A DNA stretch of 59,233 nucleotides from an uncultured Candidatus Saccharibacteria bacterium (GTDB lineage Bacteria > Patescibacteriota > Minisyncoccia > Phycocordibacterales > UBA918). A program made the position numbers and the translations under genes. The notes below the pieces were generated by a model. It saw only the letters and a list, made by a program, of their open reading frames with translations. It did not search any database and had not been told where the DNA came from. Shown one piece after another: positions 4,917 to 58,742 of the stretch; within the stretch, counting starts at the first letter, position 1, and every line of letters begins with the position of its first letter. Where the stretch lies: the NCBI GenBank assembly GCA_964352875.1, contig CAYGTP010000001.1, positions 31,471 through 90,703 of the forward strand, written 5' to 3'.

Positions 4917-4927
4917 TTATAGCGAGT

Positions 4928-11868: not shown

Positions 11869-11882
11869 GTAGCGGTAACTAC

Positions 11883-11917: not shown

Positions 11918-11925
11918 GTATTGGG

Positions 11926-12675
11926 TTAGTGTGCCTGGAGTAACGCGCCGAACTGACTCGGCAACTCCTCGAGCAGTGACCACTCATTGCCCTTGGGTGT
12001 GTCACACCCGAGCGCTGCTGTCATGTAGGCGGCTGCGTTATCAGGTAGCCCGTTGTCGCGAAGGTGCTGGAAGGTGGGAGATGTTCGAATTGCTTGCTCG
12101 ATTGCTGGACCTTTTTCGGGCAAGAATGTCGCTAACAGGTCAGCAACCGGAGCTGACTGATGACCGTCGACTGCTTGGTGGGCATAAATCAGATCCAACA
12201 GCACATCAGTTCGCTTACTTTCGCTGATACTGTCACCGGCTCGGCCGAGCAAGTAGAGGCCGAGGTATTTTTGCGCCAAATGCTCCTCGGCCGACTGTGT
12301 ACGGTGACGCCGTGATTTCAGCAGTGTTAATCCTGCCCGCAGCAGCACCGAGCGAAGTAATGACTCGATTCTCTCGTCGAGGCCAATCGTACGATTGAAG
12401 CCAGCGGCTTGTTCGGCACTGAGTGAGGCCCGAGCGGCTTTTAACTGGACCGCGAACTGCACCACGGTGCGCAAGTCAGAGGCTCCACTGAGCGACTGTA
12501 CCAGACGAATGAGATCACTCGTATTCGTGTATCGACCCAGGTCCTCACTGAGTTTGTCTGTGGTTGCTCGCACATCAAACCCATGCTGCCACAAACGGTT
12601 CAGTAGGTAAGGCGCAACAACATTGCTACCAAAAAACTTCAGTGCCAAGATGGCTGTCGTGGTAACCAGTGCCAT
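11926..12675 (-). CDS. hypothetical, mostly helical protein (249 aa)
   Basis: GGAGGG lies upstream of the ATG. The ORF is clean. No family recognised. Confidence 0.75.
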   Translation of the reverse strand: MALVTTTAILALKFFGSNVVAPYLLNRLWQHGFDVRATTDKLSEDLGRYTNTSDLIRLVQSLSGASDLRTVVQFAVQLKAARASLSAEQAAGFNRTIGLDERIESLLRSVLLRAGLTLLKSRRHRTQSAEEHLAQKYLGLYLLGRAGDSISESKRTDVLLDLIYAHQAVDGHQSAPVADLLATFLPEKGPAIEQAIRTSPTFQHLRDNGLPDNAAAYMTAALGCDTPKGNEWSLLEELPSQFGALLQAH

Positions 12676-12816
12676 AAGACCCTCCTGTTGTGTCTGTAGT
12701 CATTAAACTATAATTTTATAATTTGTAAACAACATGAGGGTTGTGGTACATGCTTCAGTAGCTGAACAAAAAACCAGCCCACGGTAATCATCGTAGGCTG
12801 GCAGAGTGCTATGGAG

Positions 12817-13008
12817 TCACTCAGGCTGTGTCTGTGTGCTGTCGAGCGGTGGTCTGGAGACCACTCCACCACGTTTGATTTCGGTCAGGGTGAGTCGCCC
12901 CGCCTCAACTACCATGCCGGCAGTCATAAGGCGAAGCAGCCACTTAGCGACCAGAGGCGTCAGTTTCGTACCCGTAGCCACGGCCACGGGGATGAGTAGC
13001 ATCGGCAT
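12817..13008 (-). CDS. small hydrophobic protein s2 (63 aa)
   Basis: I chose the internal ATG at 13008 because AAGGAG lies 7 nt upstream and the start overlaps the stop of s1 (TGAtATG). The product begins MPMLLIPVAVATGTKLTPLVAKWLL... Confidence 0.5.
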   Translation of the reverse strand: MPMLLIPVAVATGTKLTPLVAKWLLRLMTAGMVVEAGRLTLTEIKRGGVVSRPPLDSTQTQPE

Positions 13009-13009
13009 A

Positions 13010-13183
13010 TCAGTTCTCCTTGGAGGATGAGTCTGCGGGACGATAGTGCGCGTCGCGGTAGGCAGCGGTCGCGACACCAATGGTGGTCGCGACGCCAAGC
13101 CAGCCGAGCAGGCCGAGTGCAAGTTGACGAGCGACTGTCGAATTGGCGATGGCTATGACAGGAACCAGAACTGGTGCAGGCAT
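13010..13183 (-). CDS. small hydrophobic protein s1 (57 aa, below the ORF-track cutoff)
   Basis: AAAGGAA lies 5 nt upstream of the ATG at 13183. The product is MPAPVLVPVIAIANSTVARQLALGLLGWLGVATTIGVATAAYRDAHYRPADSSSKEN. Confidence 0.5.
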   Translation of the reverse strand: MPAPVLVPVIAIANSTVARQLALGLLGWLGVATTIGVATAAYRDAHYRPADSSSKEN

Positions 13184-13251
13184 AACGTTTCCTTTCGTTA
13201 CTGTTGATGTGCTCTCTCTGTAGTATACACAAAAAGGTGCATTATTATGTC

Positions 13252-13284
13252 GGGCGCGAGCGAAGCTCGCGCCCTTGTTATTTC
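13252..13284 (+). terminator. GC-rich hairpin with a T-rich tail at the right edge of the island
   Basis: gggcgcgagc, loop gaa, gctcgcgccc, then ttgttatttc. Confidence 0.4.
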
Positions 13285-13394
13285 ATGTAATTCTGGTATT
13301 GTTGGCCACATCAACGCTGGGCAATAGCGCAGCGGGGAAGGCGAGCAAGCGTTGGCTAGCCAGCCGGATTTATCAGGGAGTACGTCACCGATTC

Positions 13395-13423
13395 TTGGTG
13401 ATACGGCTTCAAACAATTAAATA
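13395..13423 (+). promoter_or_regulatory. candidate promoter feeding leader element copy B and rpsN
   Basis: TTGGTG, a 17-nt spacer, then TAAATA. The -10-like box lies 4-5 nt before the 5' arm of the element, and copy A has TAATAA in the same position. Confidence 0.3.
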
Positions 13424-13427
13424 GAGA

Positions 13428-13524
13428 AGAGTAGGGCGATATGTTCGGTCTACGTCCGACGATGTGCTGGGAAGGCACATCTTAAGGACGTACTTTCGTA
13501 ATAGTCGCTACGCTCTTTTACTCA
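13428..13524 (+). promoter_or_regulatory. structured leader element, copy B (paired with 817-912)
   Basis: The closing stem pairs AGAG-TAGggCGA with TCGCTA-cg-CTCT. The inner hairpin pairs tacgtcc...gatgtgc with gcacatc...ggacgta. The 3' block 13495-13524 matches copy A and ends 3 nt before the rpsN ATG. Confidence 0.5.
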
Positions 13525-15025: not shown

Positions 15026-15661
15026 ATGACTACGGCAGAAGAAACAAAAACAACAGACGCTACCGCGCCAGTTACCCCCGCCCCAGCTACAGAAGCTGGA
15101 GCTGGAGAACAAACTGATGCGCGAACTGAGCGACCACGCCGAGGGGGAGGAGGAGCTGGTGGCGACCGCAATCGTCGCGCTCCTCGTCGCGCTCGTCGCG
15201 GGGGTCGCCGTGATGAACGTGCTCGCCCTGAGTACGATCAAAAAATTGTCAGCATCCGACGCGTAACTCGAGTTATGGCTGGAGGACGTCGCTTCTCATT
15301 TTCAGTAGCGATGGTGATTGGAGACAAGAAAGGAAAAGTGGGAGTAGGGATTGGTAAGGCTGGAGACACGCAGTTGGCGATTGAAAAGGCTGTGCGTGAC
15401 GCGAAGAAACACATGATCCAGGTGCCAATGAACAAAGATATGCACATTCCACATGACGTTCATACCAAGTATGCGTCGAGCGAGTTGATGATTATGCCAG
15501 CGCCGGGTCGTGGACTCGTAGCCGGTAGTTCGGTTCGTACGGTTCTTGAATTGGCTGGAGTCAAAGATGTAACTGCTAAGCTATTGTCTCGAACTAAAAA
15601 TAAATTGAACAACGCCCGCGCTACGGTCGAAGCCCTAAAGCAGCTTAAGACTAAGAAATAA
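15026..15661 (+). CDS. rpsE: 30S ribosomal protein S5 with an Arg/Gly-rich N-terminal extension of about 70 aa
   Basis: The S5 core is present (VVSIRRVTRVMAGGRRFSFSVAMVIGDKKG). Confidence 0.95.
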   Translation: MTTAEETKTTDATAPVTPAPATEAGAGEQTDARTERPRRGGGGAGGDRNRRAPRRARRGGRRDERARPEYDQKIVSIRRVTRVMAGGRRFSFSVAMVIGDKKGKVGVGIGKAGDTQLAIEKAVRDAKKHMIQVPMNKDMHIPHDVHTKYASSELMIMPAPGRGLVAGSSVRTVLELAGVKDVTAKLLSRTKNKLNNARATVEALKQLKTKK

Positions 15662-15663
15662 GT

Positions 15664-16113
15664 ATGCAATTACACGAACTACAACCGAAAAAAGCACGTA
15701 AAGTCGCCAAGCGCATTGGGCGCGGCGGTAAACGAGGAAAGACATCTGGTAAAGGACACAAGGGTCAGAAAGCCCGCGCTGGTAACAGTACTCGTCCAGA
15801 AATGCGAGAAATCATCAAGAAGCTACCCAAGCTCCGTGGGCATGGTGCAAACCGGGCTCGGACAGTGAATGCAGAACGACCAGAAATCGTTGCCATCAAT
15901 GTATCAGCACTCGAAGCCAAGCTTGATGCTGGATTTGAAGTAACACCAAAAACACTAGCTAAAGCTGGACTCATTGCGATGAAACGCAAACGAGCACCAA
16001 AAGTAAAGATTCTTGGTAATGGTGAAGTGAGCAAGAAGTTTACGGTAAAAGATTGTCAGGTATCTGCGAGCGCCAAAGTCAAGCTTGAGGCTGCTGGTGG
16101 GACTGTCGCATAA
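15664..16113 (+). CDS. rplO: 50S ribosomal protein L15
   Basis: MQLHELQPKK...GRGGKRGKTSGKGHKGQKAR. It starts 2 nt after the rpsE stop, so no L30 gene lies between them. Confidence 0.95.
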   Translation: MQLHELQPKKARKVAKRIGRGGKRGKTSGKGHKGQKARAGNSTRPEMREIIKKLPKLRGHGANRARTVNAERPEIVAINVSALEAKLDAGFEVTPKTLAKAGLIAMKRKRAPKVKILGNGEVSKKFTVKDCQVSASAKVKLEAAGGTVA

Positions 16114-16130
16114 GCGGTACAATATCGCCT

Positions 16131-17402
16131 ATGCAAACATTTTTCCGCAAACTAAAGATTATCTTCACCGATGAGACAATTCGTAACCGAGTATTGTTCG
16201 TACTGGGGGCGATTGTTCTCTTCCGAATCTTGGCAGTAATCCCAATTCCAGGGGTAGATCAGTCAGTGTTGGAGCAATTCTTTGCCAATAACCAATTCCT
16301 CGGACTCCTCAACCTATTCTCAGGTGGGGGGCTCGCGAACCTCTCGATTGTGATGCTTGGAGTAGGGCCGTTTATTACGGCTTCTATCATCATGCAGTTA
16401 CTGACAGTCATGAGCCCACAACTCAAGAGTTTATACACCGAAGAAGGAGAAGCCGGCCGCGCCAAGTTTACGCAGTACAGTCGGTTACTCACATTACCAC
16501 TGGCTGTATTACAAGGCTTTGGATTTCTCACGCTACTACAGAGTCAAGGGGTAATCTCTGGTCTTTCGACCTTTGAATTTGTAACGAACGTTATTCTGGT
16601 AGTGGCAGGTTCAATCCTCTTGATGTGGATTGGTGAGTTGGTAACCGAATACGGAATTGGTAACGGTGTATCCATCATTATCTTTGCTGGTATCGTGGCC
16701 GGACTGCCGTCTACGCTTTCGCAGCTACTCTTTAGCTTTGATCCATCGCAACTACCGCTCTACATTGGCTTTGGAGTCATTGCACTCTTGGTAATTTTGG
16801 CAGTGGTTGTAATGACCGAGGCTGAACGACCAGTACCGATTACTTACGCCAAGCAGAGTCGTGGTGGCAAAACGTACGGTGGCTCAGCCTCATACCTCCC
16901 ACTTCGCCTCAACCAAGCTGGTGTTATCCCGATCATCTTTGCGATCTCAATCCTATTGTTCCCGCAGATGATTTTGAACATCCTCTCAGCCTTTGAATTC
17001 CCGTGGGTAGGTCCGGCTAATGAAGCTGTAACCACATTCCTTAATAATCAAATTTATTATGGTTTGGCTTACTTTGTCTTGGTCTTCCTCTTTACCTTCT
17101 TCTACACAGCGGTAACGTTTGACCCAGATGCCATTGCCAAGAACTTGCAACGATCAGGAGCATTTGTCCCGGGTCTGCGACCAGGCGCACAGACTTCAGA
17201 GTACCTTGGTAATCTGATTACACGTCTGACGCTCGTAGGCGCTATGTTCCTTGGCTTTGTGGCTGTCTTGCCAGTTGGAATGCAAGTCTTCACTGGAGTA
17301 TCTGCTCTAGCGATTGGTGGAACAGCACTCTTGATTATTGTGTCAGTTGTCCTTGATTTGATACGCCGACTCGATGCTCAAATATCTCTTCGCGAATATT
17401 AA
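16131..17402 (+). CDS. secY: preprotein translocase subunit SecY
   Basis: A 10-transmembrane SecY-like sequence (GVGPFITASIIMQLL) in the expected position after rplO. Confidence 0.95.
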   Translation: MQTFFRKLKIIFTDETIRNRVLFVLGAIVLFRILAVIPIPGVDQSVLEQFFANNQFLGLLNLFSGGGLANLSIVMLGVGPFITASIIMQLLTVMSPQLKSLYTEEGEAGRAKFTQYSRLLTLPLAVLQGFGFLTLLQSQGVISGLSTFEFVTNVILVVAGSILLMWIGELVTEYGIGNGVSIIIFAGIVAGLPSTLSQLLFSFDPSQLPLYIGFGVIALLVILAVVVMTEAERPVPITYAKQSRGGKTYGGSASYLPLRLNQAGVIPIIFAISILLFPQMILNILSAFEFPWVGPANEAVTTFLNNQIYYGLAYFVLVFLFTFFYTAVTFDPDAIAKNLQRSGAFVPGLRPGAQTSEYLGNLITRLTLVGAMFLGFVAVLPVGMQVFTGVSALAIGGTALLIIVSVVLDLIRRLDAQISLREY

Positions 17403-24194: not shown

Positions 24195-24323
24195 TCCAAA
24201 CTTTCAAGGTCCGACCTTGTAAGTTTGGTATAAAACAAAAGGCGACCTTTCTTCTATACAAGGTCCGACCTTGTATGGGTGTGTTACCATTTCACGTATT
24301 CTATACAAGGTCCGACCTTGTAT
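24195..24323 (+). repeat. REP cluster upstream of the RAYT gene (3 copies, central base C)
   Basis: CAAGGTCCGACCTTG occurs at 24205-19, 24256-76 and 24303-23. The last two copies lie inside a 47-bp tandem duplication (24254-24299 and 24301-24346). Confidence 0.9.
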
Positions 24324-24344
24324 GGGTGTGTTACCATTTCACGT

Positions 24345-25013
24345 ATGGGAAGAAGTATCGTTTTCGTCAGTGGTGAGTTTTATCACGTTTATAATCGAGG
24401 GACAGACAAGCGTGATGTATTTCTTGATGAGTCAGATTACAATCGCTTCATCACACTTCTTTATGTTGCTAATGGCACTGTACCGGTCGACCTAAAATTA
24501 CAAGGTCGGACCTTGTATGATGTGCGTAATATTGCTAGGGGAAATGAACTAGTAAATATTTGCGGTTATGCTTTAATGCCAAACCATTATCACCTCTTGC
24601 TGCAGGCAAATGTTGATGCTGGCGTTAGTGATTTTATGCGTAAGCTTGGTACGGCATATACTATGTATTTTAATACAAAGAACGAGCGAAGTGGAAATTT
24701 GTTTCAGGGAAAATTTAAAGCGACACATGTTAACGACGATCAATATTTACAATACTTGCTATCCTACATCCACCTAAATCCGGTCGCTCTTATAGAACCA
24801 AATTGGAAAGAAACGGGTATAAAAAATCGACAGCAAGCTAATCAGTTTTTATCTCAGTACAAGTATTCAAGCTACCCCGATTATTTAGAAATTAACAGAA
24901 TCGAAAGTATAGTTTTGAATCAAGGCGCGTTGCCAACAAATTTATCCGACGCAACTGATTTTAAAAGCGCAGTTGAATTCTGGTTGCAAGATTTACAAGG
25001 TCGGACCTTGTAA
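24345..25013 (+). mobile_element. REP-associated tyrosine transposase (RAYT, IS200/IS605-like Y1 HUH enzyme)
   Basis: The HUH motif LMPNHYHLLL and the catalytic-Tyr motif YIHLNPV are present. The gene is flanked by inverted REPs. One REP lies inside the CDS (24499-24517) and one overlaps the stop codon (24993-25013). Confidence 0.85.
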
Positions 25014-25025
25014 TAAGTTTTTATT

Positions 25026-47092: not shown

Positions 47093-47118
47093 TTTTCTTA
47101 CGGTAGGTTGATTTGTAG
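47093..47118 (+). repeat. cassette junction repeat A, copy 0 (degenerate)
   Basis: The core of ttttcttacGGTaGGTTGATTTGTAG is 16/17 identical to the core of copy 1. Confidence 0.6.
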
Positions 47119-47138
47119 TAGTAATAAACTTCACAAAA

Positions 47139-47157
47139 GTATATACAAAGTATATAC
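47139..47157 (+). promoter_or_regulatory. candidate mazEF operator
   Basis: Two self-palindromic GTATATAC boxes, 3 nt apart, lie just upstream of mazE. Confidence 0.5.
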
Positions 47158-47164
47158 TATTGTT

Positions 47165-47404
47165 ATGAAAACAAAGATTCAAAAGTGGGGCAATAGCCTA
47201 GGAGTTCGTTTGCCAAAGAGTATTGCTGAACAAAAGTCTCTGCGAGAAGGTTTAGGTGTTTCAGTTATTTTAAAAAATAATCAAATTGTGCTTGAGCCTG
47301 AGAATGAAGCACCCTCACTGGACGCTTTGTTGGCGGAAATCAGTCCTGATAATCTTCACAATGAGTCAGAGTGGTCTGATGCTCGTGGTAATGAAATATG
47401 GTAG
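47165..47404 (+). CDS. mazE: MazE/AbrB-type antitoxin
   Basis: MKTKIQKWGNSLGVRLPKSI is typical. It overlaps mazF by 7 nt. Confidence 0.85.
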   Translation: MKTKIQKWGNSLGVRLPKSIAEQKSLREGLGVSVILKNNQIVLEPENEAPSLDALLAEISPDNLHNESEWSDARGNEIW

Positions 47405-47745
47405 CGAAAACGTACATACCTGACAAAGGTGATTTGGTGTGGATTGATTTGAATCCAGCGAAAGGCAGGGAGCAGGCAAAAGTACGGCCAGCTATCGTCG
47501 TGTCACCAAAAAACTATAATCAAAAGACAAGTCTGGCATTGATGTGTCCAATCACGTCAGTACAGAAAGGATATCCATTTGAAGTCCAAGTAAAAGACAA
47601 AAAGATAACCGGAGTCATTTTAGCCGATCATGTTAGATCACTAGATTGGAAAGCTAGGAATGTAACGTTTATTGCGAGGGCAAAGTCAAAGGTAATACAA
47701 GAAACACAATCGAAGTTACTTTTACTTATCGGAGGCACTAAATAA
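47398..47745 (+). CDS. mazF: MazF/PemK-family endoribonuclease toxin
   Basis: YIPDKGDLVWIDLNPAKGREQAKVRPAIVVS is typical. Confidence 0.9.
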   Translation: MVAKTYIPDKGDLVWIDLNPAKGREQAKVRPAIVVSPKNYNQKTSLALMCPITSVQKGYPFEVQVKDKKITGVILADHVRSLDWKARNVTFIARAKSKVIQETQSKLLLLIGGTK

Positions 47746-47763
47746 AGCATTAGAATATCTTAT

Positions 47764-47786
47764 TTTTGAAGGTGGTTGATTTGTAG
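47764..47786 (+). repeat. cassette junction repeat A, copy 1
   Basis: ttttGAAGGTGGTTGATTTGTag ends 5 nt from the stop of the CPBP gene. Confidence 0.8.
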
Positions 47787-47791
47787 AGATG

Positions 47792-48532
47792 CTAAATAAC
47801 CTTCGAAAGAGTTTGTATGAAAATATCTGCCGTAAAGTGAGACACCATAGCGTATTCCAATCCATGTTTCCAGTATAGATAGCCAAATACTACTCCACCA
47901 ATACTATTTAAAAGTACTGTCCGCACAATAATAAGTGGTGTCAGATCTACCAAGGCTTCCATAGCAGGAAGGTGCAGTATTCCAAAGAGAATGGCTGTGC
48001 TGAGGATTGCTGAATACATTACCCAGGATGAGCTCGTTTTAAAGAGTTTGAAAAGCATCCAAGCCACGAGTGACATGAGAAAATATCGCATGATGAGCTC
48101 CTCAGTAATTCCTCCGTAAAATGAAGCGAGGAGTCCTTGCCAGAGGGGTGTCGTGGTAAGTGTGCCAAGTACTGGGATGAGGGAGGTGAAGATAAATTCG
48201 AGAGCCAGAATCGCTGCAGCGACCAGGAGGCCGCTCAGGATTGCTACTTTGCACAAGTGTTTGGCTTGGGGTACTGGTCGGCCGGTCATATAGCTGTCAA
48301 TTAGTGGTGTCTGCAGACCGACCTTGGTGGACAGTTTGATGCCAAAAAACACGACGATTGCCACCAGTATGCTTGATTGTGTGAGCGACAAAAGAATTAA
48401 AGCGGGCAGGGGTATTAGTGCCTCGGCTAGCGCTGCTGCTTGCAGTGAGAGTGCATACGGCATCACTGCTGCTACGCCGATAATTCCCAGTCCCCACAAC
48501 AACGTAAATTTCTTTACTAGTATTTTGTCCAT
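47792..48532 (-). CDS. CPBP-family intramembrane glutamic endopeptidase (CAAX protease-like)
   Basis: GGITEELIMRYF and FGILH are present. Confidence 0.85.
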   Translation of the reverse strand: MDKILVKKFTLLWGLGIIGVAAVMPYALSLQAAALAEALIPLPALILLSLTQSSILVAIVVFFGIKLSTKVGLQTPLIDSYMTGRPVPQAKHLCKVAILSGLLVAAAILALEFIFTSLIPVLGTLTTTPLWQGLLASFYGGITEELIMRYFLMSLVAWMLFKLFKTSSSWVMYSAILSTAILFGILHLPAMEALVDLTPLIIVRTVLLNSIGGVVFGYLYWKHGLEYAMVSHFTADIFIQTLSKVI

Positions 48533-48617
48533 AGGTTTTTAGTATAGCAAGATACGGGACCATACTTGACTAGAAAGGTACCTTGCATTGCAAAGTACTA
48601 TATGCTACGATATTGGC

Positions 48618-48980
48618 ATGAGTGATGAAAAAGCCGCATACAATATAGAAAACGCAAAGTCGCAGATGCGTAAAGGGTTTCTTGAATTCCCAGTCCTCTT
48701 AATTGTGGGAGCAAAAGCGACGTACGCACCGGACATTTTAAAACAGCTTAAAAACGCCAACCTGCTCGTGGTGGAGGGGACATTGTACCCGCTCCTCTCA
48801 CGTCTGAAGCGTATGGGTTTGGTGGAGTATGAATGGCAGGAAAGCAAAAGCGGTCCGCCCCGCAAGATGTACGCCATCACCAAAGACGGCAAAACCGTCT
48901 TGCAACAATTAGAAGCCTCGTGGAAGTCGCTCGACACCTCAGTAAACACCTTAATCAAACACTATGAAAAAAGTAATTAA
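48618..48980 (+). CDS. PadR-family transcriptional regulator
   Basis: GTLYPLLSRLKRMGLVEYEWQES...PRKMYAITKDG is typical. Confidence 0.85.
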   Translation: MSDEKAAYNIENAKSQMRKGFLEFPVLLIVGAKATYAPDILKQLKNANLLVVEGTLYPLLSRLKRMGLVEYEWQESKSGPPRKMYAITKDGKTVLQQLEASWKSLDTSVNTLIKHYEKSN

Positions 48981-50208
48981 TATCACCCTCGGTAGTATCG
49001 TCTTTGCAATTGAGCAAGACGCGTATGACGCATTGGCGCTGTATCTAGAAGGAATAAAAAACAACCTTAGTCTGAGCGATGACGCCAATGAAATCATTAG
49101 TGATATTGAAAGTGCAATTGCTGAGAAATTTATTGCCCGCAAACGGGGAGAAAAAAACGCTGTAACTGTGGTTGATGTTGACGCAGTAATCGCTGAAATG
49201 GGTAGCCCGACTGATTTTGGTGAAGGTGCAGATGAGGGAGCGACCCAGGCTGAAGCGACCACGACCAAAGAGGGTGTTGACTCAAAGAAACGGTTGTACC
49301 GGGACTCGGAAGACGCCGTGGTCGCTGGTGTGGCCGCGGGTATTGCAAATTACTTCAACATTGATCCGGTGATTGTTCGCCTTATCTTTGTTGTTTCTGT
49401 CTTCTTTAATGGGTTGGGTGTGCTGGTGTACCTAATCTTTTGGTTAATAGTTCCGGCTGCAAAGACCACCGCTGAGAAATATGCCATGCGCGGTGAATCG
49501 GTGACCGTCGAGCAGATAACCGAGCGAGTGAAAAAAAAACTAGATGCGGTTGATACTGACGCCTTAAAAAATAGCGCTCGCAATACCTGGGGCGGTATGC
49601 GTCCAGTGTTCGTTAAGTTGTTTGACGTACTCGGGACGCTGGTGCGGTCTCTTGGTACTGTCTTTCGGTATATTATTGGCGTAGCGTTTCTTATCGGCGG
49701 CGCGGTTTCTTTGGCGGCACTAGTTTCGACGTATAGTATCGTCCTGCTTTCGGATAAGACATTTATTCCGGCTGACGCGCAAACAGCGTTAGACATCATG
49801 CTTGGTAGCAGCTTGGGTATCGTGGCAATTTCTTCGTCGTTTGTCATGGTTGGTATTCCGTTTTTACTGTTGGTCATGCTTGGAGGAAGCTTGATTGCGA
49901 AGCGAAATTTATTTACTGCAACCAAGAGTATTGCGCTGGCAGTTGTTTGGATTGTGGCGGTGGTATTGGCTGGGACGAGTTCCATCTTGCAAGTCGAAAA
50001 AGTGATGCAAGAACTCGACCCAGAAGGGTATAGCAATGGTCAGTACCAAGTACATGTTAATACTGCCAATGATTGGGCAGAATTCGAAGCCGACTTTCGA
50101 CCGATTGAGGAAGGTGCACCAGGGGCTCCTCCGACAGACACCCCGCTGGAGTTGCCTGAAGGTGACTGGGTAGAAGGCTCACTGCCGGATATCGAGGTAT
50201 CAGATTAG
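48964..50208 (+). CDS. PspC-domain membrane protein
   Basis: RLYRDSEDAVVAGVAAGIANYFNIDPVIVRLIFV is a PspC sequence. It overlaps padR by 17 nt. Confidence 0.8.
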   Translation: MKKVINITLGSIVFAIEQDAYDALALYLEGIKNNLSLSDDANEIISDIESAIAEKFIARKRGEKNAVTVVDVDAVIAEMGSPTDFGEGADEGATQAEATTTKEGVDSKKRLYRDSEDAVVAGVAAGIANYFNIDPVIVRLIFVVSVFFNGLGVLVYLIFWLIVPAAKTTAEKYAMRGESVTVEQITERVKKKLDAVDTDALKNSARNTWGGMRPVFVKLFDVLGTLVRSLGTVFRYIIGVAFLIGGAVSLAALVSTYSIVLLSDKTFIPADAQTALDIMLGSSLGIVAISSSFVMVGIPFLLLVMLGGSLIAKRNLFTATKSIALAVVWIVAVVLAGTSSILQVEKVMQELDPEGYSNGQYQVHVNTANDWAEFEADFRPIEEGAPGAPPTDTPLELPEGDWVEGSLPDIEVSD

Positions 50209-50226
50209 CTACTACGTGCACAGACG

Positions 50227-50272
50227 AAATAAATACCACAATTAATTTCGAAATTAATTGTGGTATTTATTT
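50227..50272. repeat. 46-nt perfect palindrome containing copy 2 of the 36-nt palindrome
   Basis: The core of aaataaataccacaattaatttc|gaaattaattgtggtatttattt (50232-50267) is identical to 17649-17684. It also lies between convergent genes. Confidence 0.9.
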
Positions 50273-50306
50273 TCTGAAGCAAGAAGCTTGGGGCAGGACT
50301 AGTTTG

Positions 50307-50348
50307 TTGAAACGAGTGTGTGAATTTTTAAAGGTGGTTGATTTGTGG
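50307..50348 (+). repeat. cassette junction repeat A, copy 2
   Basis: ttgaaacgagtgtgtgaattttTAAAGGTGGTTGATTTGTGG lies 35 nt beyond the stop of the IMPase gene. Confidence 0.8.
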
Positions 50349-50383
50349 TGAGTGAAAGTGGACTCCACCGCAGCTCTTTGGTT

Positions 50384-51163
50384 TTAAACCATTAACTTCT
50401 CAATACTTTTATCAGAACTAATAAGTTCGTCGTAAACGTTTTGATTAGAAGCTATGAAACTGAGGTTTGTATAATCATATGACTCACTTTTGAAGTTGCG
50501 GACTATACCGCCCGCTTCTTTTACCAGGAGTGCGCCAGCGGCATAATCATAGTCTTTACCAAATCCATCATAGACAATTCGGCCTTCTGTCTTACCGCTT
50601 GCAACTAGAACAAACTCAAATCCTGAGCTTAGAGTTTGACAAAGATTTGCTCTAGAACGAATTGCCGCCAGCACTTCTTTGTTTTCTTCTTTCTTTGAGT
50701 TGATTTCGCAGTGTAGATACGCTTGCTCTAGATTTCTATTACTAACTGATATTTTCTCCTCGTTCTTATATGCTCCTTTACCTAGCTCAGCGTGGTACAT
50801 ATCATCGTTTACGAAGTCGTAAATAAGAGCAAATATAACCTCTCCTTTGTGTATTAAAGCAAGCATAGTGGTGCAAAACGGTATCCCACGAATGAAGTGC
50901 CCTGTTCCATCAATAGGGTCACTGAGCCAGAAGGTTTCACCGTCACGGTCACCACCAAATTCTTCACCAACGAATGGCACATCAGGTAATAGTGTTGCCA
51001 AATCTTCCTTCAGTTGTTGTTCAACCCGTTGGTCAATTTCTGTTACTGCGTCAGTGGAAGACGCACTTTTGTATTCCTTTACTTCAATGTTTCCAAAATG
51101 CGGCAGTGTTAAGTCTCGTGTCTTTTTGACAGCATCAATAATATCTTTAGTTGGTAATTCCAT
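50384..51163 (-). CDS. inositol monophosphatase family phosphatase
   Basis: WLSDPIDGTGHFIRGIP and the fold-typical layout are present. Confidence 0.85.
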   Translation of the reverse strand: MELPTKDIIDAVKKTRDLTLPHFGNIEVKEYKSASSTDAVTEIDQRVEQQLKEDLATLLPDVPFVGEEFGGDRDGETFWLSDPIDGTGHFIRGIPFCTTMLALIHKGEVIFALIYDFVNDDMYHAELGKGAYKNEEKISVSNRNLEQAYLHCEINSKKEENKEVLAAIRSRANLCQTLSSGFEFVLVASGKTEGRIVYDGFGKDYDYAAGALLVKEAGGIVRNFKSESYDYTNLSFIASNQNVYDELISSDKSIEKLMV

Positions 51164-51175
51164 AATTAATTAGTT

Positions 51176-51607
51176 TTAAACTTCACGTTCAATTTCAGAG
51201 AAGTACGAACCTTCTCTCATTTGTTTGAATAATCGTTGTAGTTGTGGAGTCACATCTTTTGGTATGGCGTCTTTATCAATCCATATTGCTTCGCTTGCAA
51301 GGTCAGGTTCACCTAGTGTTGGTTCGCCGGTCCACTTTTTAGCTTTAAAGTAGAAATTAGTATATTCGTCACGTAGGTAGTCAACGTGCACAAATTCTAA
51401 ATCTTCAGTTTTTACATCAACACCAGCTTCCTCCTTCACCTCTTTAATTGCTGATTCACGAACTTGATCGCCTTGGTCTACGTGCCCTGCGGGTATTGTA
51501 AGTAATCCATCAGCCCAGCCTGTATTTGCTCTTCGTAGAAAAAAGACTTTGTTGTCTTGTTCTAAAATGACAAAAACTGCGGTTCGAGTTAAATGGCGAT
51601 CTGACAT
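51176..51607 (-). CDS. NUDIX hydrolase
   Basis: The Nudix box GHVDQGDQVRESAIKEVKEEAGV is present. Confidence 0.85.
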   Translation of the reverse strand: MSDRHLTRTAVFVILEQDNKVFFLRRANTGWADGLLTIPAGHVDQGDQVRESAIKEVKEEAGVDVKTEDLEFVHVDYLRDEYTNFYFKAKKWTGEPTLGEPDLASEAIWIDKDAIPKDVTPQLQRLFKQMREGSYFSEIEREV

Positions 51608-51708
51608 AGTTGCTTAGTATACCAAAATAAAGAAGCTTACCTAGGATTGAGTAAACTGCCATATAGCGACTTATGTTTCCATGTTGGGGGCAGTTTACTC
51701 TCGGTCAG

Positions 51709-51763
51709 GACCTCTTTGATTGAAATGGAATACTCTAATTTTTTGAAGGTGGTGGACTTGTGG
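51709..51763 (+). repeat. cassette junction repeat A, copy 3 (extended form)
   Basis: The copy reads gACCTCTttgATTGAAATGGAatactctAATTTTTTGAAGGTGGTgGAcTTGTGG. A 12-bp inverted repeat lies just upstream (51654-65 and 51689-700). Confidence 0.85.
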
Positions 51764-51883
51764 TGATTTAATACCAAGTAAAATATGACACCAGCGTTTA
51801 CTTTGCTAAATAAATCAGTATAGTTCTTTTTGACCACATTTTGTGGCTGAAATGCTCATTTACAACACAGAGAGGTACATGCT

Positions 51884-52807
51884 ATGCCCCAATGGAACGC
51901 AGGAGGAGTAAAGCTCCCACACGGTCCGTATATGATCGGTGCCGGTGTCTGCAAGACACCAGCCACCACTGAGGAGTGGCTTAAGGTCGCTCCGGTCGTA
52001 TCTGGTTCATACACACCGCAGCAGCGCGATGGAAATCCAGGCAAGGTCGTCTGGCCGGACTCCCTCGAAGAAATGCTTCGCATCGGTTACGGACTCAACA
52101 GCTACGGTATGCCCAATGCGGGTTTTGCCGCGGCTGCTACCAGTTTCCTTCAGTCGCAGAAAACTGAGCAACCGCTCATCGTGAGCGTCGCTGGCTTCTC
52201 GGTCGACGACTACGTGCTCGGTGTCAGGACATTTGGCGTTGTTTCGAATGTGACTGCGATTGAGCTCAACTTTGGGTGTCCCAATACCCAAGGCGAGCAT
52301 AATACTATCGTTTCCTTCGATCCTGATACAGTCTGGCAGATCATGCTTGGGATCGGACGTCTGGAGTTGCAAAAACCCATCTGGGTCAAACTGTCTCCGT
52401 ACAGCAACCCCCAAGACCTGCAGCGGATGGCTGAAATACTCAATCACTGCGTCGGTCCTCAACCGTTGGCTGTGGTGACTTGCAATACGTTTCCGAACGC
52501 CTTTGCAGGGGAAGGATTGATCGACCCCAATAGCGGTATGGCTGGTCTCTCAGGACCGGTGATGAAGCCAATCGCGCTCGGACAAGTCAAGCAGTTTCGC
52601 ACGCATCTCGACGAGCAGATCGATATTATCGGCGTTGGTGGTGTCACCACTGGCGACGATGTCGTCGATCTCCTCGAAGCTGGCGCCCAAGCGGTGCAGA
52701 TCACGTCGCTAGCCCACTGGGCTGGTGATCCACGGCGATTCCACCAACATCTACTCATCGGTGAGCGTTCTTCGCGTCTCGTCGAATACCTCACCAACGA
52801 CGCCTGA
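51884..52807 (+). CDS. pyrD: class 1-type dihydroorotate dehydrogenase family protein
   Basis: ELNFGCPNT, GLSGPVMKPIAL and IIGVGGVTTGDD are present. Confidence 0.8.
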   Translation: MPQWNAGGVKLPHGPYMIGAGVCKTPATTEEWLKVAPVVSGSYTPQQRDGNPGKVVWPDSLEEMLRIGYGLNSYGMPNAGFAAAATSFLQSQKTEQPLIVSVAGFSVDDYVLGVRTFGVVSNVTAIELNFGCPNTQGEHNTIVSFDPDTVWQIMLGIGRLELQKPIWVKLSPYSNPQDLQRMAEILNHCVGPQPLAVVTCNTFPNAFAGEGLIDPNSGMAGLSGPVMKPIALGQVKQFRTHLDEQIDIIGVGGVTTGDDVVDLLEAGAQAVQITSLAHWAGDPRRFHQHLLIGERSSRLVEYLTNDA

Positions 52808-52820
52808 AAGGAGGCACTAA

Positions 52821-53957
52821 ATGCAAGTACTACTTCAAAAAGATTCTGAATTTCGGGAGCTTGCCCTTTTCAATCATGAATCGGGTCAAGCAATCGTTTT
52901 CAACAAGGGTCTTGTCGACATCCACTCCCACGGTCGCGACAACAATGCGGTTCTCGGGAATGGAATGACCGACATCCTTGACCATTCGGTGCGTCAATTT
53001 GGCATGGTTCTGCTCATGCCGAACCTGGCTGGTAGGGATGCGCTCATGACCTGGCGAATGGCCATCGACTACTGGGAGCGTGCAACGCGCGCCAGTGGCG
53101 TGAAGCCAGACATGATGCGCATTCTGGTTACGGTCTATCTCAATACTGACCTGACCGAAGATGACATCAAGCGCATCGCCAACGATCCACGGGTCGCCGG
53201 TATCAAGTCCTATCCGGCGCACGGCACTACCGGTGCTGAGCATGGGCTGCGGACCCCGTTTGAAGCGGCAAAGCAGCTCGAGTGGATGGAGAAGTATGGT
53301 GTGCCGCTTCTGGTTCATGGCCAGATGCGGACGCAACTCAACGGCGAGATCCTTGACGAATGGGATCGTGAACCGTATTTCTACACCGAAGTTGCTCCTG
53401 TCCTTGATGATGCTTTCCCGGAACTTCGCATTTCCTACGAGCATCTTTCGACTGGGATTGGCGCACAAACCGTGGCAGAACGGAAGGGACCAACTCAAGG
53501 CACTTTCACCATTCTTCACCTCGGCTACACCCGTACTGACGTGATGGACACCGGTGTTCGCACCGACATGGTGATGAAGCCGATGGTGCAACACGAACGT
53601 GAGCGACCCAAACTCTGGGAAGTTTTTCGGGCAGCACCTGATCGCTTCGCGCTCGGTTCTGACGATGCGTGGCATCCTATAACTGCCAAGCATACCAAAA
53701 ACTGTGCTTGTGGTGGCTGCTATGGCCCCTACCGGGTCGGCTACTACCTCGACGTATTCGAAGAAGCACAAGCGCTAGACCTCTTCGGTCGGTTCGCTTG
53801 CGTCAACGCAGCGCGCTTCTATGGCGTCGAGGTGCCAAAGAAACGCATTGAAATGCGGAAAGGTAACTACACGGTTGCTGAAATGCTGCCGTTTGGCGAC
53901 CACAAGGCGCAGCCACTCCATGCTGGTGAAAAGCGGTTTGGGTGGTACCAAGTCTAA
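52821..53957 (+). CDS. pyrC: class II (E. coli PyrC-type) dihydroorotase homolog
   Basis: The protein is collinear with PyrC landmarks: DIHSHGRD, MPNL, KSYPAHGTTG, PLLVHGQ, YEHLST, GSDDAWH and CGGCYG. Confidence 0.8.
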   Translation: MQVLLQKDSEFRELALFNHESGQAIVFNKGLVDIHSHGRDNNAVLGNGMTDILDHSVRQFGMVLLMPNLAGRDALMTWRMAIDYWERATRASGVKPDMMRILVTVYLNTDLTEDDIKRIANDPRVAGIKSYPAHGTTGAEHGLRTPFEAAKQLEWMEKYGVPLLVHGQMRTQLNGEILDEWDREPYFYTEVAPVLDDAFPELRISYEHLSTGIGAQTVAERKGPTQGTFTILHLGYTRTDVMDTGVRTDMVMKPMVQHERERPKLWEVFRAAPDRFALGSDDAWHPITAKHTKNCACGGCYGPYRVGYYLDVFEEAQALDLFGRFACVNAARFYGVEVPKKRIEMRKGNYTVAEMLPFGDHKAQPLHAGEKRFGWYQV

Positions 53958-53988
53958 GCTGTTCTTTCGGGAAGAAATATCAAGACTC

Positions 53989-54024
53989 AGGGCCTGGCGG
54001 CATGTTCGCCAGGCCTTTAATTTT
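53989..54024 (+). terminator. intrinsic terminator after the pyrC-like gene
   Basis: ggcctggcg pairs with cgccaggcc, followed by tttaatttt. Confidence 0.75.
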
Positions 54025-54037
54025 ATAAATTAATATA

Positions 54038-54139
54038 GAGGTTCTAATTTCCAAACATCTCTCCAAAATACAACAAAACGAGCCTTATAAAATAAGGCTC
54101 GTTTTGCTTCGGATTTGGTGGGAGACTTTGTACCAAGCT
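54038..54139 (+). repeat. junction repeat B, copy X (about 100 nt, with an internal hairpin)
   Basis: The copy gaggttctaatttccaaacatctctccaaaatacaacaaaacgagcc...ggctcgttttgcttcggatttggtgggagactttgtaccaagct is roughly 90% identical to 55450-55550. Confidence 0.85.
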
Positions 54140-54241
54140 GACCTAGAAATTAAGGAGAGCCTGCTCGACTATAATTTCGGAAATACTCTGGTGGTGGACC
54201 TAGAAATTAAGGAGAGCCTGCTCGACTATAATTTCGGAAAT
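54140..54241 (+). repeat. tandem direct repeat (two 45-nt units, 12-nt spacer, 57-nt period)
   Basis: gacctagaaattaaggagagcctgctcgactataatttcggaaat occurs at 54140-54184 and at 54197-54241. It lies inside the insertion that separates B from A in copy X. Confidence 0.9.
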
Positions 54242-54326
54242 TGAATGAAACAACGAGCGTAGCGATTATGTTGAATTTATGTCCCGATTTGTTCTGTCCT
54301 TGGACAAATCGCTGGACGCCTGGTAA

Positions 54327-54381
54327 AACCTCTATTATTGAAATGGAGTGTCCCAATTTTTTGAAGGTGGTTGATTTGTGG
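54327..54381 (+). repeat. cassette junction repeat A, copy 4 (extended form)
   Basis: The copy reads aACCTCTattATTGAAATGGAGTGTcccAATTTTTTGAAGGTGGTTGATTTGTGG. Confidence 0.85.
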
Positions 54382-54396
54382 TAGTCTCACTTTTAG

Positions 54397-54474
54397 TTAC
54401 GAAGCTAGTCGCCACAACTTAATCAGGTTTCCTTCAGGTTCATGAATACGAGCGAACGTGCCAACTTCAGTCAT
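54397..54474 (-). pseudogene. C-terminal remnant of a glyoxalase/VOC-family gene (25 codons)
   Basis: The translation MTEVGTFARIHEPEGNLIKLWRLAS resembles the conserved F.DPDGN.IEL end of VOC proteins. It sits directly next to junction repeat copy 4. Confidence 0.35.
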
Positions 54475-54587
54475 ACTATTTCACTTGTCTTCCTCTTCAA
54501 CAAACTTGTAGACTTTCAGAGTAATAAACCGTACTATGCAAAGTAGGAGTCGAGGCTCCTAACCTTGAACTAGAAAAGGAGAATGTC

Positions 54588-55388
54588 ATGGCTGAGGCTG
54601 CGACAACGACTGGACAGATTGATCTTTTAAATATCGAAAGGCTGGTCACAACAGACCAAATCGACCATCTCACTGAGTATAGAAAATGCTTGGTGCATGC
54701 GATGGGTTCATTCGACATCCTGCGTGTCGTGTGGGAACTGGTTGCCCAACTTCCCATGATGCAAATGCATCGCATGTATAACACGGAGGAAATTTTCAAG
54801 CTTTCAACACTTCACTTGCAGGAGCTGGGCAGAGATGCTCTAGAGCCACTCAAGGACGGTAAGCAAAAACTGATCCTGTGTCCAATCCTCTTGCCTTTGA
54901 AGCGAAAGTTTCCGGGCAAACGCTTCGTTCTTTCTAGTGAAGACAAGCCTATGGAACCTTTGAGCACTTGCGAAAAGGTAACCGAGCAGGGTGTGCTGGA
55001 GCGCATCATACTTGTCGACCGCGATGGATGTTTCCACGCGCTTGAGGGCTATTGGGAAACGATAGACGAGCACTCGTCCAGACCCCATTACGAGCATCAT
55101 GGATATAGACAGCTTAAGGAGGTTTCGCTCAGGCAGATCGAGAATGTTGATGATCTGTATCAAAGCGTCGATGGTGGCGATATGGTGCGTTTCTTCTGGC
55201 TCGCTACTAACTTCATGCGAGAAGCCTTGGATGCTACTCTGGAATCTGCCCGACGTGAATTTGAGAAAAGCGTCGGCGTGGATGGTGAAGGAGAAGAGTT
55301 GGTTCAAGAAAAGTATCTCACCATTATCCGTGCTATGAACTTGTATGGGCAGGTTTGCAGACAAGTCCACCACCGCTACGGTCGCTGA
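54588..55388 (+). CDS. hypothetical protein (266 aa)
   Basis: AAGGAG lies 7 nt upstream of the ATG. The ORF is clean and has its own terminator. No family recognised. Confidence 0.7.
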   Translation: MAEAATTTGQIDLLNIERLVTTDQIDHLTEYRKCLVHAMGSFDILRVVWELVAQLPMMQMHRMYNTEEIFKLSTLHLQELGRDALEPLKDGKQKLILCPILLPLKRKFPGKRFVLSSEDKPMEPLSTCEKVTEQGVLERIILVDRDGCFHALEGYWETIDEHSSRPHYEHHGYRQLKEVSLRQIENVDDLYQSVDGGDMVRFFWLATNFMREALDATLESARREFEKSVGVDGEGEELVQEKYLTIIRAMNLYGQVCRQVHHRYGR

Positions 55389-55410
55389 CAAGCCTTGTCG
55401 AAGAAATTGA

Positions 55411-55441
55411 AGAGTCGCGTTCGCGCGGCTCTTTCTTATTT
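55411..55441 (+). terminator. intrinsic terminator
   Basis: agagtcgcg pairs with cgcggctct, followed by ttcttattt. Confidence 0.7.
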
Positions 55442-55449
55442 AAATGTAG

Positions 55450-55607
55450 GAGGTTCCAATTTCCAAACATCTCTCCAAAATACAGCAAGACGAGCCCTAT
55501 AATTAGGGCTCGTCTTGCTTCAGATTTGGTGGAAGACTTTGTACCAAGTTAGAACCTCTTTAATTGAGATGGAGTGTGCGAGTTTTCTGAAGGTTGTTGA
55601 TTTGTGG
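55450..55607 (+). repeat. compact composite junction repeat B+A (copy Y / A copy 5)
   Basis: B occupies 55450-55550 and is followed directly by A, aACCTCTttaATTGAgATGGAGTGTgcgAgTTTTcTGAAGGTtGTTGATTTGTGG. The composite ends 2 nt from the stop of the NDT-like gene. Confidence 0.85.
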
Positions 55608-55609
55608 GA

Positions 55610-56026
55610 TTAAATCGAATTCAAAAAAGATTCAATGTCTGGGTAGTGTTCTGAGAACATCAAATATAATGTTTCAGGGTTTTCTACCTCTCCAATTATT
55701 ACCATCTTTTTACCAAGACCATATGCTACACCTGCTTCCATGTGTGCAGCCTTTCCAGCTGGTAATAACATGACAATAGTATCGGCATTTTTTAAACCAT
55801 CCATGTCAGTCTTAAAATGGTCTTGATGAACAGGATCATTCCAGAAATCTGGATGTGACTCTAGTATTTTCATCTGTTCTTCCCAAGGAATGTCTGGAAT
55901 GTCAGGGGTTGCTGGTTTGCTAAGGAAGTTGTAGCAAGTAAGTCCTTTGGCCTCGATGCCCTGTACGAGACGCAGGACATTCTTATGATTTCGCACGCGT
56001 CCAATCACCATGTAGTCAGTTTTCAT
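55610..56026 (-). CDS. nucleoside 2-deoxyribosyltransferase-like protein
   Basis: The layout fits this family (KNADTIVMLLPAGKAAHMEAGVAYGLGKKMVIIG). I prefer the start at MKTDYMVIG, which follows a TATACT box. Confidence 0.7.
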   Translation of the reverse strand: MKTDYMVIGRVRNHKNVLRLVQGIEAKGLTCYNFLSKPATPDIPDIPWEEQMKILESHPDFWNDPVHQDHFKTDMDGLKNADTIVMLLPAGKAAHMEAGVAYGLGKKMVIIGEVENPETLYLMFSEHYPDIESFLNSI

Positions 56027-56082
56027 AATCTGGAGTATAGCAAAAAACAAAAACCACCCAAGGGGTGCTTAATGTTTGACAA

Positions 56083-56234
56083 GTGGAGATAGGGAATTGG
56101 TCACGAATCACTAAGTAGATTATTTCGCTATACTCATAATCTACAAAGTGTTCTCGACCCCGACTCGGCGACAAGCACTCCCTTTGGTCGTCTTGTGTAC
56201 CGCCTCCGTCTTTCAATTCCCCCCATCCTCTCAC
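56083..56234 (+). ncRNA. structured RNA-like element R1 (unclassified, strand uncertain)
   Basis: The 5' block GTGGAGATaGGGAATTGGTCACGA is present. gggaattg pairs with caattccc across about 115 nt. An internal hairpin pairs gtagatta with taatctac. A 17-bp-class hairpin follows at 56236-56277. Confidence 0.5.
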
Positions 56235-56279
56235 AAACGCAAAGGCCGCAAAGACATATGTCTTTGCGGCCTGCGTTAT

Positions 56280-56434
56280 GTGGAGATGGGGAATTGGTCA
56301 CGAGTTACTAACTATAATTGTTCGTTTCACTCCAATTCTAGTAAGTACTCTCGACCCCAGCTCGCTCGCCTCCGGCATCGCTGCGCTTTTCAATTCCCGC
56401 ACGCAAGTGAAATTGTTCACTTGCTCATCTCCAC
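56280..56434 (+). ncRNA. structured RNA-like element R2 (tandem paralog of R1)
   Basis: tggagatg pairs with catctcca, and gggaattg with caattccc. The internal helices change sequence relative to R1 but keep their pairing. A terminator-like hairpin follows. Confidence 0.5.
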
Positions 56435-56474
56435 AAATGAAAACACTCCCCGAAGGGAGCTTTTTCATTTGTGG
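56431..56474. terminator. bidirectional terminator-like hairpin after R2
   Basis: In ccacaaatgaaaa-cactccccgaagggag-ctttttcatttgtgg, the 5' arm overlaps the 3' arm of the R2 outer helix by 4 nt. Confidence 0.6.
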
Positions 56475-56638
56475 ACCTCGATAGAAATTTATTGAACTCC
56501 ACAAAAAGCTTTATCTATCAGTGGTACCAGTATTTTAATGACCCACAGAATGCTAATTTATCTATGAATTCAGCCATTCCTGCTTAAGCATTTCAAAAAG
56601 ATAAGGTGCACCCCTAGTTAGTTAAACACTAGAAGTAA

Positions 56639-58677: not shown

Positions 58678-58742
58678 AGGTGCAGTATATCAAATATGTG
58701 AGACGTTATTGCAGTAATGTAACATGAGAGTAAAATGTAAAC

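Follow-up and report, generated by a model that had tools for sequence, protein, structure and literature searches.

Positions 47.1 to at least 56.5 kb of a 59,233-nucleotide stretch of DNA from an uncultured candidate phyla radiation (CPR) bacterium (contig CAYGTP010000001.1 of GenBank assembly GCA_964352875.1; the whole stretch is called the window here) probably belong to a hypervariable island that grew by repeated, site-specific insertion of small integrase-less modules into the 3' end of ssrA, the transfer-messenger RNA (tmRNA) gene. A first-pass annotation had described gene cassettes between six copies of a junction repeat, here called A, and had likened them to serial site-specific accretion, as in integron-like or tandem-island arrays. 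The tandem-island comparison has held up, with modules shuffled between loci, arrays that extend from the ssrA 3' end and breakpoints at the repeat edge. The integron comparison has not, as it fails on every defining feature tested. Direct observations cover the repeat family and its arrays, which in relatives adjoin ssrA and are co-oriented with it, the match of the repeat core to the ssrA end, the shuffling of modules, the breakpoints at the core and the integrase-less state of the arrays. The integration itself would be, or have been, the work of a recombinase encoded elsewhere or since lost, presumably bound by the arm of A.

Within the window, the 23-nt motif from which the repeat was first recognised (TTTTGAAGGTGGTTGATTTGTGG) has five plus-strand matches with at most three mismatches (47764-86, 50326-48, 51741-63, 54359-81 and 55585-607), against a chance expectation of 0 in 100 shuffles. 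A sixth, more diverged copy at 47095-47119 has 72-76% identity to the others (nhmmer E=0.0045). Six same-orientation copies unique to this part of the window had been claimed, and a profile of the 65-nt unit indeed found no others in the 59 kb. The motif is the right, ssrA-distal end of a unit of ~85 nt, and the upstream extension previously seen in three copies corresponds to a 58-nt long form at copies 4-6. The arm of A contains two GTGGT repeats 11 nt apart, which are possibly integrase arm sites.

All six copies lie on the plus strand and differ in preservation. Copy 1 (47095..47119), furthest from the inferred ssrA side, is degenerate, with the last ~25 nt alone surviving; this is where the array is oldest, at its left end. 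Copy 2 (47762..47789) is cut down to its last 28 nt, and copy 3 (50292..50351) is diverged and ~60 nt long. Copy 4 (51684..51766) is full length with a degenerate ssrA-like left core (GTTGGGGGCAG), and the 3' part of copy 5 lies at 54322..54384. Copy 6 (55527..55613) is complete at 87 nt; it starts TGGTGGAAGAC, the opposite strand of which resembles the ssrA 3' end ATCTCCACCA, and ends ..GATTTGTGGGATTAA. The nhmmer profile scores (15.2, 15.2, 32.0, 57.7, 60.6 and 58.1 for copies 1-6) climb toward the inferred ssrA side, which fits the left copies being older. The same decay trend is repeated in two related arrays, L138 and L158 (related loci are numbered with L throughout).

The relationship with ssrA is seen in these relatives. 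Six distinct loci include an array end (L146 repeats L139, and L171 repeats L170), and in 6/6 the array begins at ssrA, with an intact tmRNA gene (ARAGORN, Rfam) 0.5-4 kb from the nearest A in L079, L110, L139, L166, L170 and L173. A always lies downstream of the ssrA 3' end on the opposite strand, and reversed A is co-oriented with ssrA. The ssrA 3' terminus reads ..CCCATCTCCACC (also given as ..GGTTCGAnTCCnCCCATCTCCACC or ..ATCTCCACCA), and its reverse complement, GGTGGAGATGGG, forms the left edge of A and of a second kind of element, C. This edge varies among copies of A (TGGTGGAGATC, TGGTGGAAGAC or TTGTGGA..); as TGGTGGAGA(TC) or TTGTGGA, it is the reverse complement of ssrA ..(GA)TCTCCACCA.

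In long contigs, the array is located between smpB-ssrA and a block containing a response regulator, a histidine kinase, AckA, XFP and DUF1295. For example, L172 and L173 have the order DUF1295, XFP, AckA, histidine kinase, response regulator and array, after which L173 runs on into ssrA and smpB, while L170 and L171 read smpB, ssrA, array, response regulator and histidine kinase. Left of the window's own array, the genes follow the same order (DUF1295 at 27.7 kb, XFP at 30.4, AckA at 32.8, the histidine kinase at 35.0 and the response regulator at 45.8), and this shared synteny implies that ssrA and smpB are to be expected beyond the right edge of the window. By this synteny, ssrA would be on the minus strand just past that edge, beside smpB. 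L172 and L173 are identical over the array and right flank and differ on the ssrA side (left of ~8500). There, L173 has smpB-ssrA, whereas L172 has 8 kb encoding a restriction-modification system, a LexA-like repressor and a trypsin-like protease, possibly a larger island occupying the same site.

The window has two C elements of ~155 nt (56083-56234 and 56280-56434, plus strand) with a hairpin between them at 56243-56272. When reverse-complemented, the C element located after ssrA in L170 matches both of them, and this orientation agrees with a minus-strand ssrA beyond the right end of the window. In L079, L110, L139 and L170, C elements occur directly past the ssrA terminator. The ssrA 3' end occurs at both borders of the element as inverted copies (GTGGAGATGGGG ... 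CTCATCTCCAC), and at the right end 19 of the final 23 nt of ssrA are repeated. Inverted ends (GTGGAGATGG / CCATCTCCAC) would suit a transposase-mobilised, MITE-type element, a reading that is not clearly supported; they too reproduce the terminus of ssrA, and duplication of the target was not seen. C elements, at ~155-200 nt, are kept across genera and have internal hairpins with compensatory changes between copies; they could be minimal integrated elements or small RNA genes. Further right, a hairpin is followed by a solo core-like pair (TGTGGAC ... CTCCACA; 56445..56504, plus strand), past which the variable region appears to continue.

Related loci were found by pattern scans. A scan of genome contigs gave 119 loci, of which 4 were genuine relatives (from Candidatus Nomurabacteria, Paceibacteria and Kaiserbacteria) and the rest mostly chance, the pattern being too degenerate; a metagenome scan added 36 more, each of which has the extended motif. 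In viral contigs, the core gave chance or coding matches only. Searches with the window's own proteins led to nothing beyond contigs of 2-3 kb from the same sample. In many of the ~40 related contigs, A occurs in same-orientation arrays with a spacing of 0.4-2.6 kb, such as six copies in 7 kb in L138 and five each in L139, L155 and L163. Following 28 of 57 unique A copies is a convergent open reading frame (ORF) with its stop codon at most 40 nt away, mostly within 6 nt.

The genes between the repeats are shuffled among these loci. The mazEF, PadR-PspC, pyrD-pyrC, 266-aa, HD and NTPase modules of the window have homologues elsewhere at 67-83% nucleotide identity, which are bounded by A units and have different neighbours. 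Blocks collinear with L155 and L139 begin within A and stop at the next core, limits that fit a module consisting of the core, the arm, the cargo and one of two junction units, T or P. The profile search that the first-pass annotation had proposed, of what the repeat delimits in relatives, recovered shuffled gene modules, with the same modules found beside other neighbours.

Across relatives, the commonest cargo is a Gp49 (HigB-like)/HTH (HigA-like) toxin-antitoxin module, present in L138, L139, L155, L163, L134 and L170-L178. The stop codon of the HigA-like antitoxin directly abuts the A unit. A search with this antitoxin led to the long array-bearing contigs and gave 307 protein clusters at E<=1e-20, the best 120 listed being at least 76% identical to the query.

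Strain-level variation is found within a single population (L132, L135, L142, L155, L163 and L165). For instance, L163 has an extra 168-aa deaminase module compared with L155. When L163 is aligned with L155, and L135 with L132, an identity of 99-100% gives way to ~75-85% identity or to an unrelated continuation at one exact point, just past ..T(T)GTGGA at the left edge of A. The crossover maps ~60 nt left of the 23-nt motif, and the same site has three different continuations, one of them unrelated to A. Comparing strains at the repeat boundaries had been recommended from the outset; this yielded both the extra module and breakpoints at the repeat edge, at three junctions in four locus comparisons.

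These breakpoints also bear on a different account of the shuffling, in which the array was seeded at ssrA and its A, P and T units now serve as mere portable homology, with RecA-type recombination after DNA uptake reshuffling the modules. The junction units are long enough for such exchange (65-150 nt, 80-90% identical between modules), A units are more alike between genomes than the cargo (83-90% vs ~74%), and no recombinase was found in any array. However, identity switches at one point, the ssrA-like core, instead of at varied positions within the units, and L135 beyond the core has no homology to the alternative alleles. This account, an unlikely one, also leaves the single orientation of all units relative to ssrA unexplained.

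The left neighbour of A is one of two modules: T, a terminator-like hairpin, or P, of ~90 nt. A second repeat, B, had been noted ahead of the motif at two junctions, and its copies (54038-54137 and 55450-55548) are indeed ~91% identical; B is a T module, predicted to act on the minus strand. The first copy (54038..54139, minus strand) forms a hairpin with a predicted minus-strand terminator (54108->54072), followed by an ssrA-like core (TTTGGTGGGAGAC) at 54114-54126 and the first part of A copy 5. The second (55450..55526, minus strand) has its predicted terminator at 55519->55484. Each B is also preceded by a plus-strand terminator (53989-54017 and 55409-55434), as had been described for these two plus-strand intervals. 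On folding, T-type junctions give long imperfect hairpins (z = -6.6), in many cases flanked by CTCCAC ... GTGGAG, while P-type junctions fold no better than shuffles.

Such hairpins, together with same-orientation repeats between compact modules and the closely convergent stop codons at about half of the A units, would suit an independent integron-like platform, with A or the adjoining hairpin as the site of a cassette integrase and the proximity of ssrA incidental. This is very unlikely. An intI-like gene was found neither in the 47 kb on the left side of the window array nor in the flanking regions of L134, L139, L144, L151 and L155. The first-pass annotation was right that the repeat lacks the palindrome of attC or dif sites. 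Conserved secondary structure is absent from both strands of A, and P-type junctions show no folding beyond that of shuffles. Complementarity of the upstream inverse core is 5.6/8, compared with 5.35/8 in shuffles. The modules occur in mixed orientation with their own promoters and terminators, and the core equals the ssrA terminus, at which all six distinct array ends are located. A structured RNA in A was likewise rejected (RNAalifold -1.95 kcal/mol with almost no covariation on the plus strand; no structure on the minus strand), and Rfam gave no match for A, B or C, either at gathering thresholds or at E<=10.

The P module of the window (51608..51683, minus strand) is a conserved promoter-like block that reads leftward, with an extended -10 box (TTTTGGTATACT) 8 nt ahead of the Nudix ATG. 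P accompanies A in many relatives, where it stands at the start of a minus-strand gene with TTTTGGTATACT 6-8 nt before the ATG. This short distance implies a leaderless mRNA. An ORF through P was considered and rejected, as it has no start codon and contains stops and a frameshift. Extended -10 boxes (TTTTGGTATACT or TGCTATACT) precede minus-strand ATGs at three places in the window (51608-51630, 56051-56072 and 58678-58700) and in the P modules of L138, L139 and L155; judged from the sequence, the shared box implies a putative promoter block common to unrelated genes and leaderless mRNAs.

At copy 5, B and A are separated by a gap (54140-54321) that contains an exact tandem duplication with a 57-nt period. 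This corresponds to a 54-57-nt hairpin module, INS (54140..54253, plus strand), present twice and inserted within A at a T-loop-like GTT|AGAACC site. INS is an optional part of A: relatives have one or two copies of 53-59 nt each, with compensatory changes in the stem between loci. The duplicated INS of the window keeps the frame of the A open reading frame.

That reading frame is a further feature of the repeat. The last 20 codons of A follow the pattern V-[KR]-T-S-L-I-E-M-E-C-x-N-F-L-K-[VI]-V-D-L-W-stop, and their plus-strand ratio of nonsynonymous to synonymous polymorphism (pN/pS) is 0.23, a value reached in 0/2000 column shuffles. The antisense frame sharing third positions gives 0.40 and the remaining four frames 0.58-1.38. 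One Leu position uses all six Leu codons, and the stop is TGA, TAA or TAG, never TGG. An ATG or TTG directly precedes the first Trp codon in about a third of the copies, while in most a start codon is absent or inconsistent. The likeliest reading of this codon-like end of A is a putative micro-ORF that would start at the att junction.

If A were mainly a small gene (a micro-ORF of 27-40 aa) or a promoter/3'UTR block, the array could be a by-product of local duplication. The low pN/pS, the six Leu codons at one position, the retention of true stops, the occasional start codon and the resemblance of P to a conserved leaderless promoter all speak for this. Yet most copies lack a consistent start codon, and searches of 5.8 and 1.84 billion proteins found no protein family for the peptide, only short, inconsistent ORFs with unrelated N-termini. 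The cargo genes are mutually unrelated and differ in GC content and are thus not local duplicates, and neither the link to ssrA nor the breakpoints are explained. Of the explanations considered, this one is the least probable.

Other origins for the A reading frame were tried and set aside. As the C-terminus of a real protein (a transposase, an integrase or a split gene), it gave 4 short matches only in a word-index search and 25 matches in an exhaustive profile search, all of 29-141 aa except two weak multi-stretch matches (739 and 224 aa); the 20 with sequences examined had unrelated N-termini. As a read-through extension of the upstream minus-strand gene, it failed on variable spacing and frame.

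Serial integration at ssrA also has to be weighed against several observations. The exact ssrA repeat in A-type junctions is short (8-13 nt), and the rest of A aligns to tmRNA no better than shuffled sequence does. The idea that A derives by divergence from the final 85 nt of tmRNA was not supported, as alignment scores fell within the shuffle range. The window contains no tmRNA gene, and adjacency here rests on synteny with relatives. All the breakpoints come from one population, and comparable patterns could arise from homologous recombination between conserved units. Nor would a simple attachment-arm model predict the codon-like constraint on A. Finally, no tyrosine or serine recombinase was found among the window ORFs scanned (no Phage_integrase, Resolvase or Recombinase match), as the first-pass annotation had reported for integrases, and none in ~100 kb of related array loci. 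The lack of a recombinase in the arrays means that the modules are cis-mobilizable at best, or fossils.

Under the serial-integration reading, a module in window orientation would comprise the core (the reverse complement of the ssrA 3' end), the ~85-nt A arm, one to three cargo genes and T or P. Each integration would restore ssrA and leave a displaced 3' fragment. New modules would enter at ssrA and push older ones leftward, such that left copies would be older and more decayed. A T module would terminate ssrA when its module adjoins the gene, and P would supply the cargo with a leaderless promoter.

The cargo of the window modules is diverse, comprising one to three genes in either orientation with their own promoters and terminators, and cargo modules end in a hairpin that travels with them, not in a terminal repeat. 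GC content in successive array intervals is 0.38, 0.47, 0.40, 0.535, 0.47 and 0.40, in keeping with the compositional differences described earlier, and the gene content originally assigned was recovered with Pfam (MazE/PemK, Rce1-like CPBP, PadR, PspC, IMPase, NUDIX and DHO_dh) and NCBIfam (dihydroorotase). Module 1 (47165..47745, plus strand; GC 0.38) is a mazE-mazF toxin-antitoxin pair (Pfam MazE/PemK), the homologue of which sits beside different neighbours in the L155 and L142 arrays. Module 2 (47792..50272, mixed strands) consists of a CPBP/Rce1-like protease on the minus strand and PadR and PspC on the plus strand (Pfam), and ends in a perfect 23-bp hairpin (50227-50272); in L134, PadR-PspC homologues are located directly ahead of the first A unit. 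Module 3 (50384..51607, minus strand) is an operon of inositol monophosphatase and Nudix genes (Pfam) with its stop codon 33 nt past A copy 3.

Module 4 (51884..54017, plus strand; GC 0.535) contains pyrD and a pyrC-type dihydroorotase (Pfam DHO_dh, NCBIfam dihydroorotase) and has its own terminator (53989-54017). It shares 74% identity over 2.4 kb with a module in L132, L155 and L163, where the neighbours differ. A similar pair, pyrD with a pyrC-type amidohydrolase, occurs outside the array in L170/L171 (902-3055), upstream of ftsH-smpB-ssrA, and the pair in the window (51884-53957) is a repeat-bounded module. A 25-codon gene remnant (54394..54474, minus strand) ends ~10 nt past A copy 5. The remnant had been attributed to the glyoxalase family, an identity that was looked for and could not be confirmed.

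Module 5 (54588..55434, plus strand) encodes a 266-aa protein, the ORF of which has no family match, and has its own terminator (55409-55434). The module and the A units on either side of it share 83% identity with L139 3537-4805, a block that is separated from ssrA in L139 by just one further gene and a C element. Module 6 (55610..56078, minus strand) is a 146-aa ORF with a weak nucleoside 2-deoxyribosyltransferase-like match. Its stop overlaps the end of A copy 6, a -10 box (TGCTATACT) lies 7 nt ahead of its ATG, and a hairpin is present at 56055-56067.

Among known systems, the closest described case is that of Dehalococcoides, in which tandem ssrA islands lie right downstream of the single-copy tmRNA gene, bounded by 20-bp ssrA 3' repeats with ~85 bp of extra conservation around each (McMurdie et al. 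2011, PMC3146451). These islands are several kb or larger, and 16 have a six-gene integration module including the serine recombinase DsiB; some are devoid of it and have been suggested to be cis-mobilizable, and content differs between strains (PMC3146451). Both systems are tandem, downstream of ssrA and strain-variable, with some or all units lacking an integration module. However, the modules described here are 0.4-2.6 kb with one to three genes, the arrays yielded no recombinase, A junctions repeat ssrA exactly over 8-13 nt instead of 20 bp, and the arm is codon-like, with promoter and terminator modules and a Paceibacteria-class CPR host.

More generally, islands in tRNA and tmRNA genes regenerate the target gene, displaced 3' fragments mark their borders, and newer elements displace older ones (PMC4383910). 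The arrays begin after the target gene in relatives and have co-oriented border repeats and strain-variable breakpoints, as expected of tandem islands, and they lack an integrase of their own. They resemble cis-mobilizable elements (CIMEs) and Islander-type islands in their target-derived att flanks, the absence of recombination and transfer genes and their tandem arrangement with related elements. Unlike CIMEs, which are mobilised by the integrase of a neighbouring related element, no autonomous partner is seen in the arrays.

Tycheposons of Prochlorococcus carry their own tyrosine or serine integrase, often with replication genes, and are 10-20 kb in size; in the tRNA-adjacent islands of that genus, successive integrations push older elements inward and leave partial target repeats and remnants (bioRxiv 10.1101/2020.12.28.424599). 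The streamlined genome and an island beside an RNA gene that grows by serial site-specific integration are shared, whereas the arrays have no integrase found, a tmRNA instead of a tRNA target and miniature modules. Integrons and clusters of attC sites lacking integron-integrases (CALINs) also have same-orientation repeats and compact heterogeneous cassettes, and can form arrays without a nearby integrase, but their attC-like imperfect palindrome, RYYYAAC/GTTRRRY core pair and intI are missing here, where modules of mixed orientation have their own promoters and terminators and the core of the repeat equals the tmRNA gene terminus. Long arrays made up solely of integrase-less units this small are not among the described cases compared (PMC4383910, PMC3146451 and the tycheposons).

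A broader proposal, and a rather doubtful one, is that Paceibacteria use the ssrA 3' end as a standing, integron-like platform for gene capture. Miniature modules of an ORF and an 85-nt arm would be integrated by a recombinase that is not module-borne (a host enzyme or an undescribed one), with a portable promoter or terminator, and the att junction would give a micro-ORF of 27-40 aa that is remade at each event.

Two other features of the window were observed outside the array. A 244-aa Y1 transposase at 24279-25013 resembles the REP (repetitive extragenic palindrome)-associated tyrosine transposases (RAYTs; Pfam Y1_Tnp 6e-9; NCBIfam REP-associated tyrosine transposase 4.5e-12). It lies in a segment of low GC content (0.40; 24200-25020) and is bracketed by palindromes (ACAAGGTC(C/G)GACCTTGT), two to three upstream, one in the ORF and one at the stop. 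These palindromes (ACAAGGTCCGACCTTGT) are unrelated in sequence to A, and A was rejected as a REP or bacterial interspersed mosaic element associated with the RAYT, as it is non-palindromic and its copies are confined to 8.5 kb, with none in the remaining 50 kb of the window. An IS200/IS605-type origin was also rejected, as the sole Y1 transposase has unrelated REPs and the cargo ORFs abut A, leaving no room for a left-end hairpin. Elsewhere, a ~9-kb block (~4600-13500) with a GC content of 0.56, compared with 0.45-0.48 in its flanks, contains six ORFs of 249-820 aa without a Pfam match. It sits between ribosomal protein S3 (1586-2293) and S5/SecY (15026-17402) and looks like an insertion within the ribosomal-protein gene cluster.

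CPR bacteria have tiny genomes, and little is known of how they acquire genes. The pile-up of islands beside the tmRNA gene is already known; here, the modules are unusually small and none has its own integrase. Flexible genes gather as very small modules in one hotspot beside this essential gene, and the modules are common to several genera (Kaiserbacteria, Nomurabacteria and Paceibacteria). Their cargo includes toxin-antitoxin pairs, enzymes of nucleotide metabolism (Nudix, deaminase, NTPase and pyrD/pyrC) and membrane proteins. An exact sequence handle, made up of the ssrA core and the conserved arm, is available for finding arrays in metagenomes, where they also break assemblies, for searching for the recombinase and for detecting excision in reads. 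If the modules are still mobile, they would represent a compact gene-exchange system; if the array is a fossil, it would still record the series of insertions clearly, including a visible gradient of age.

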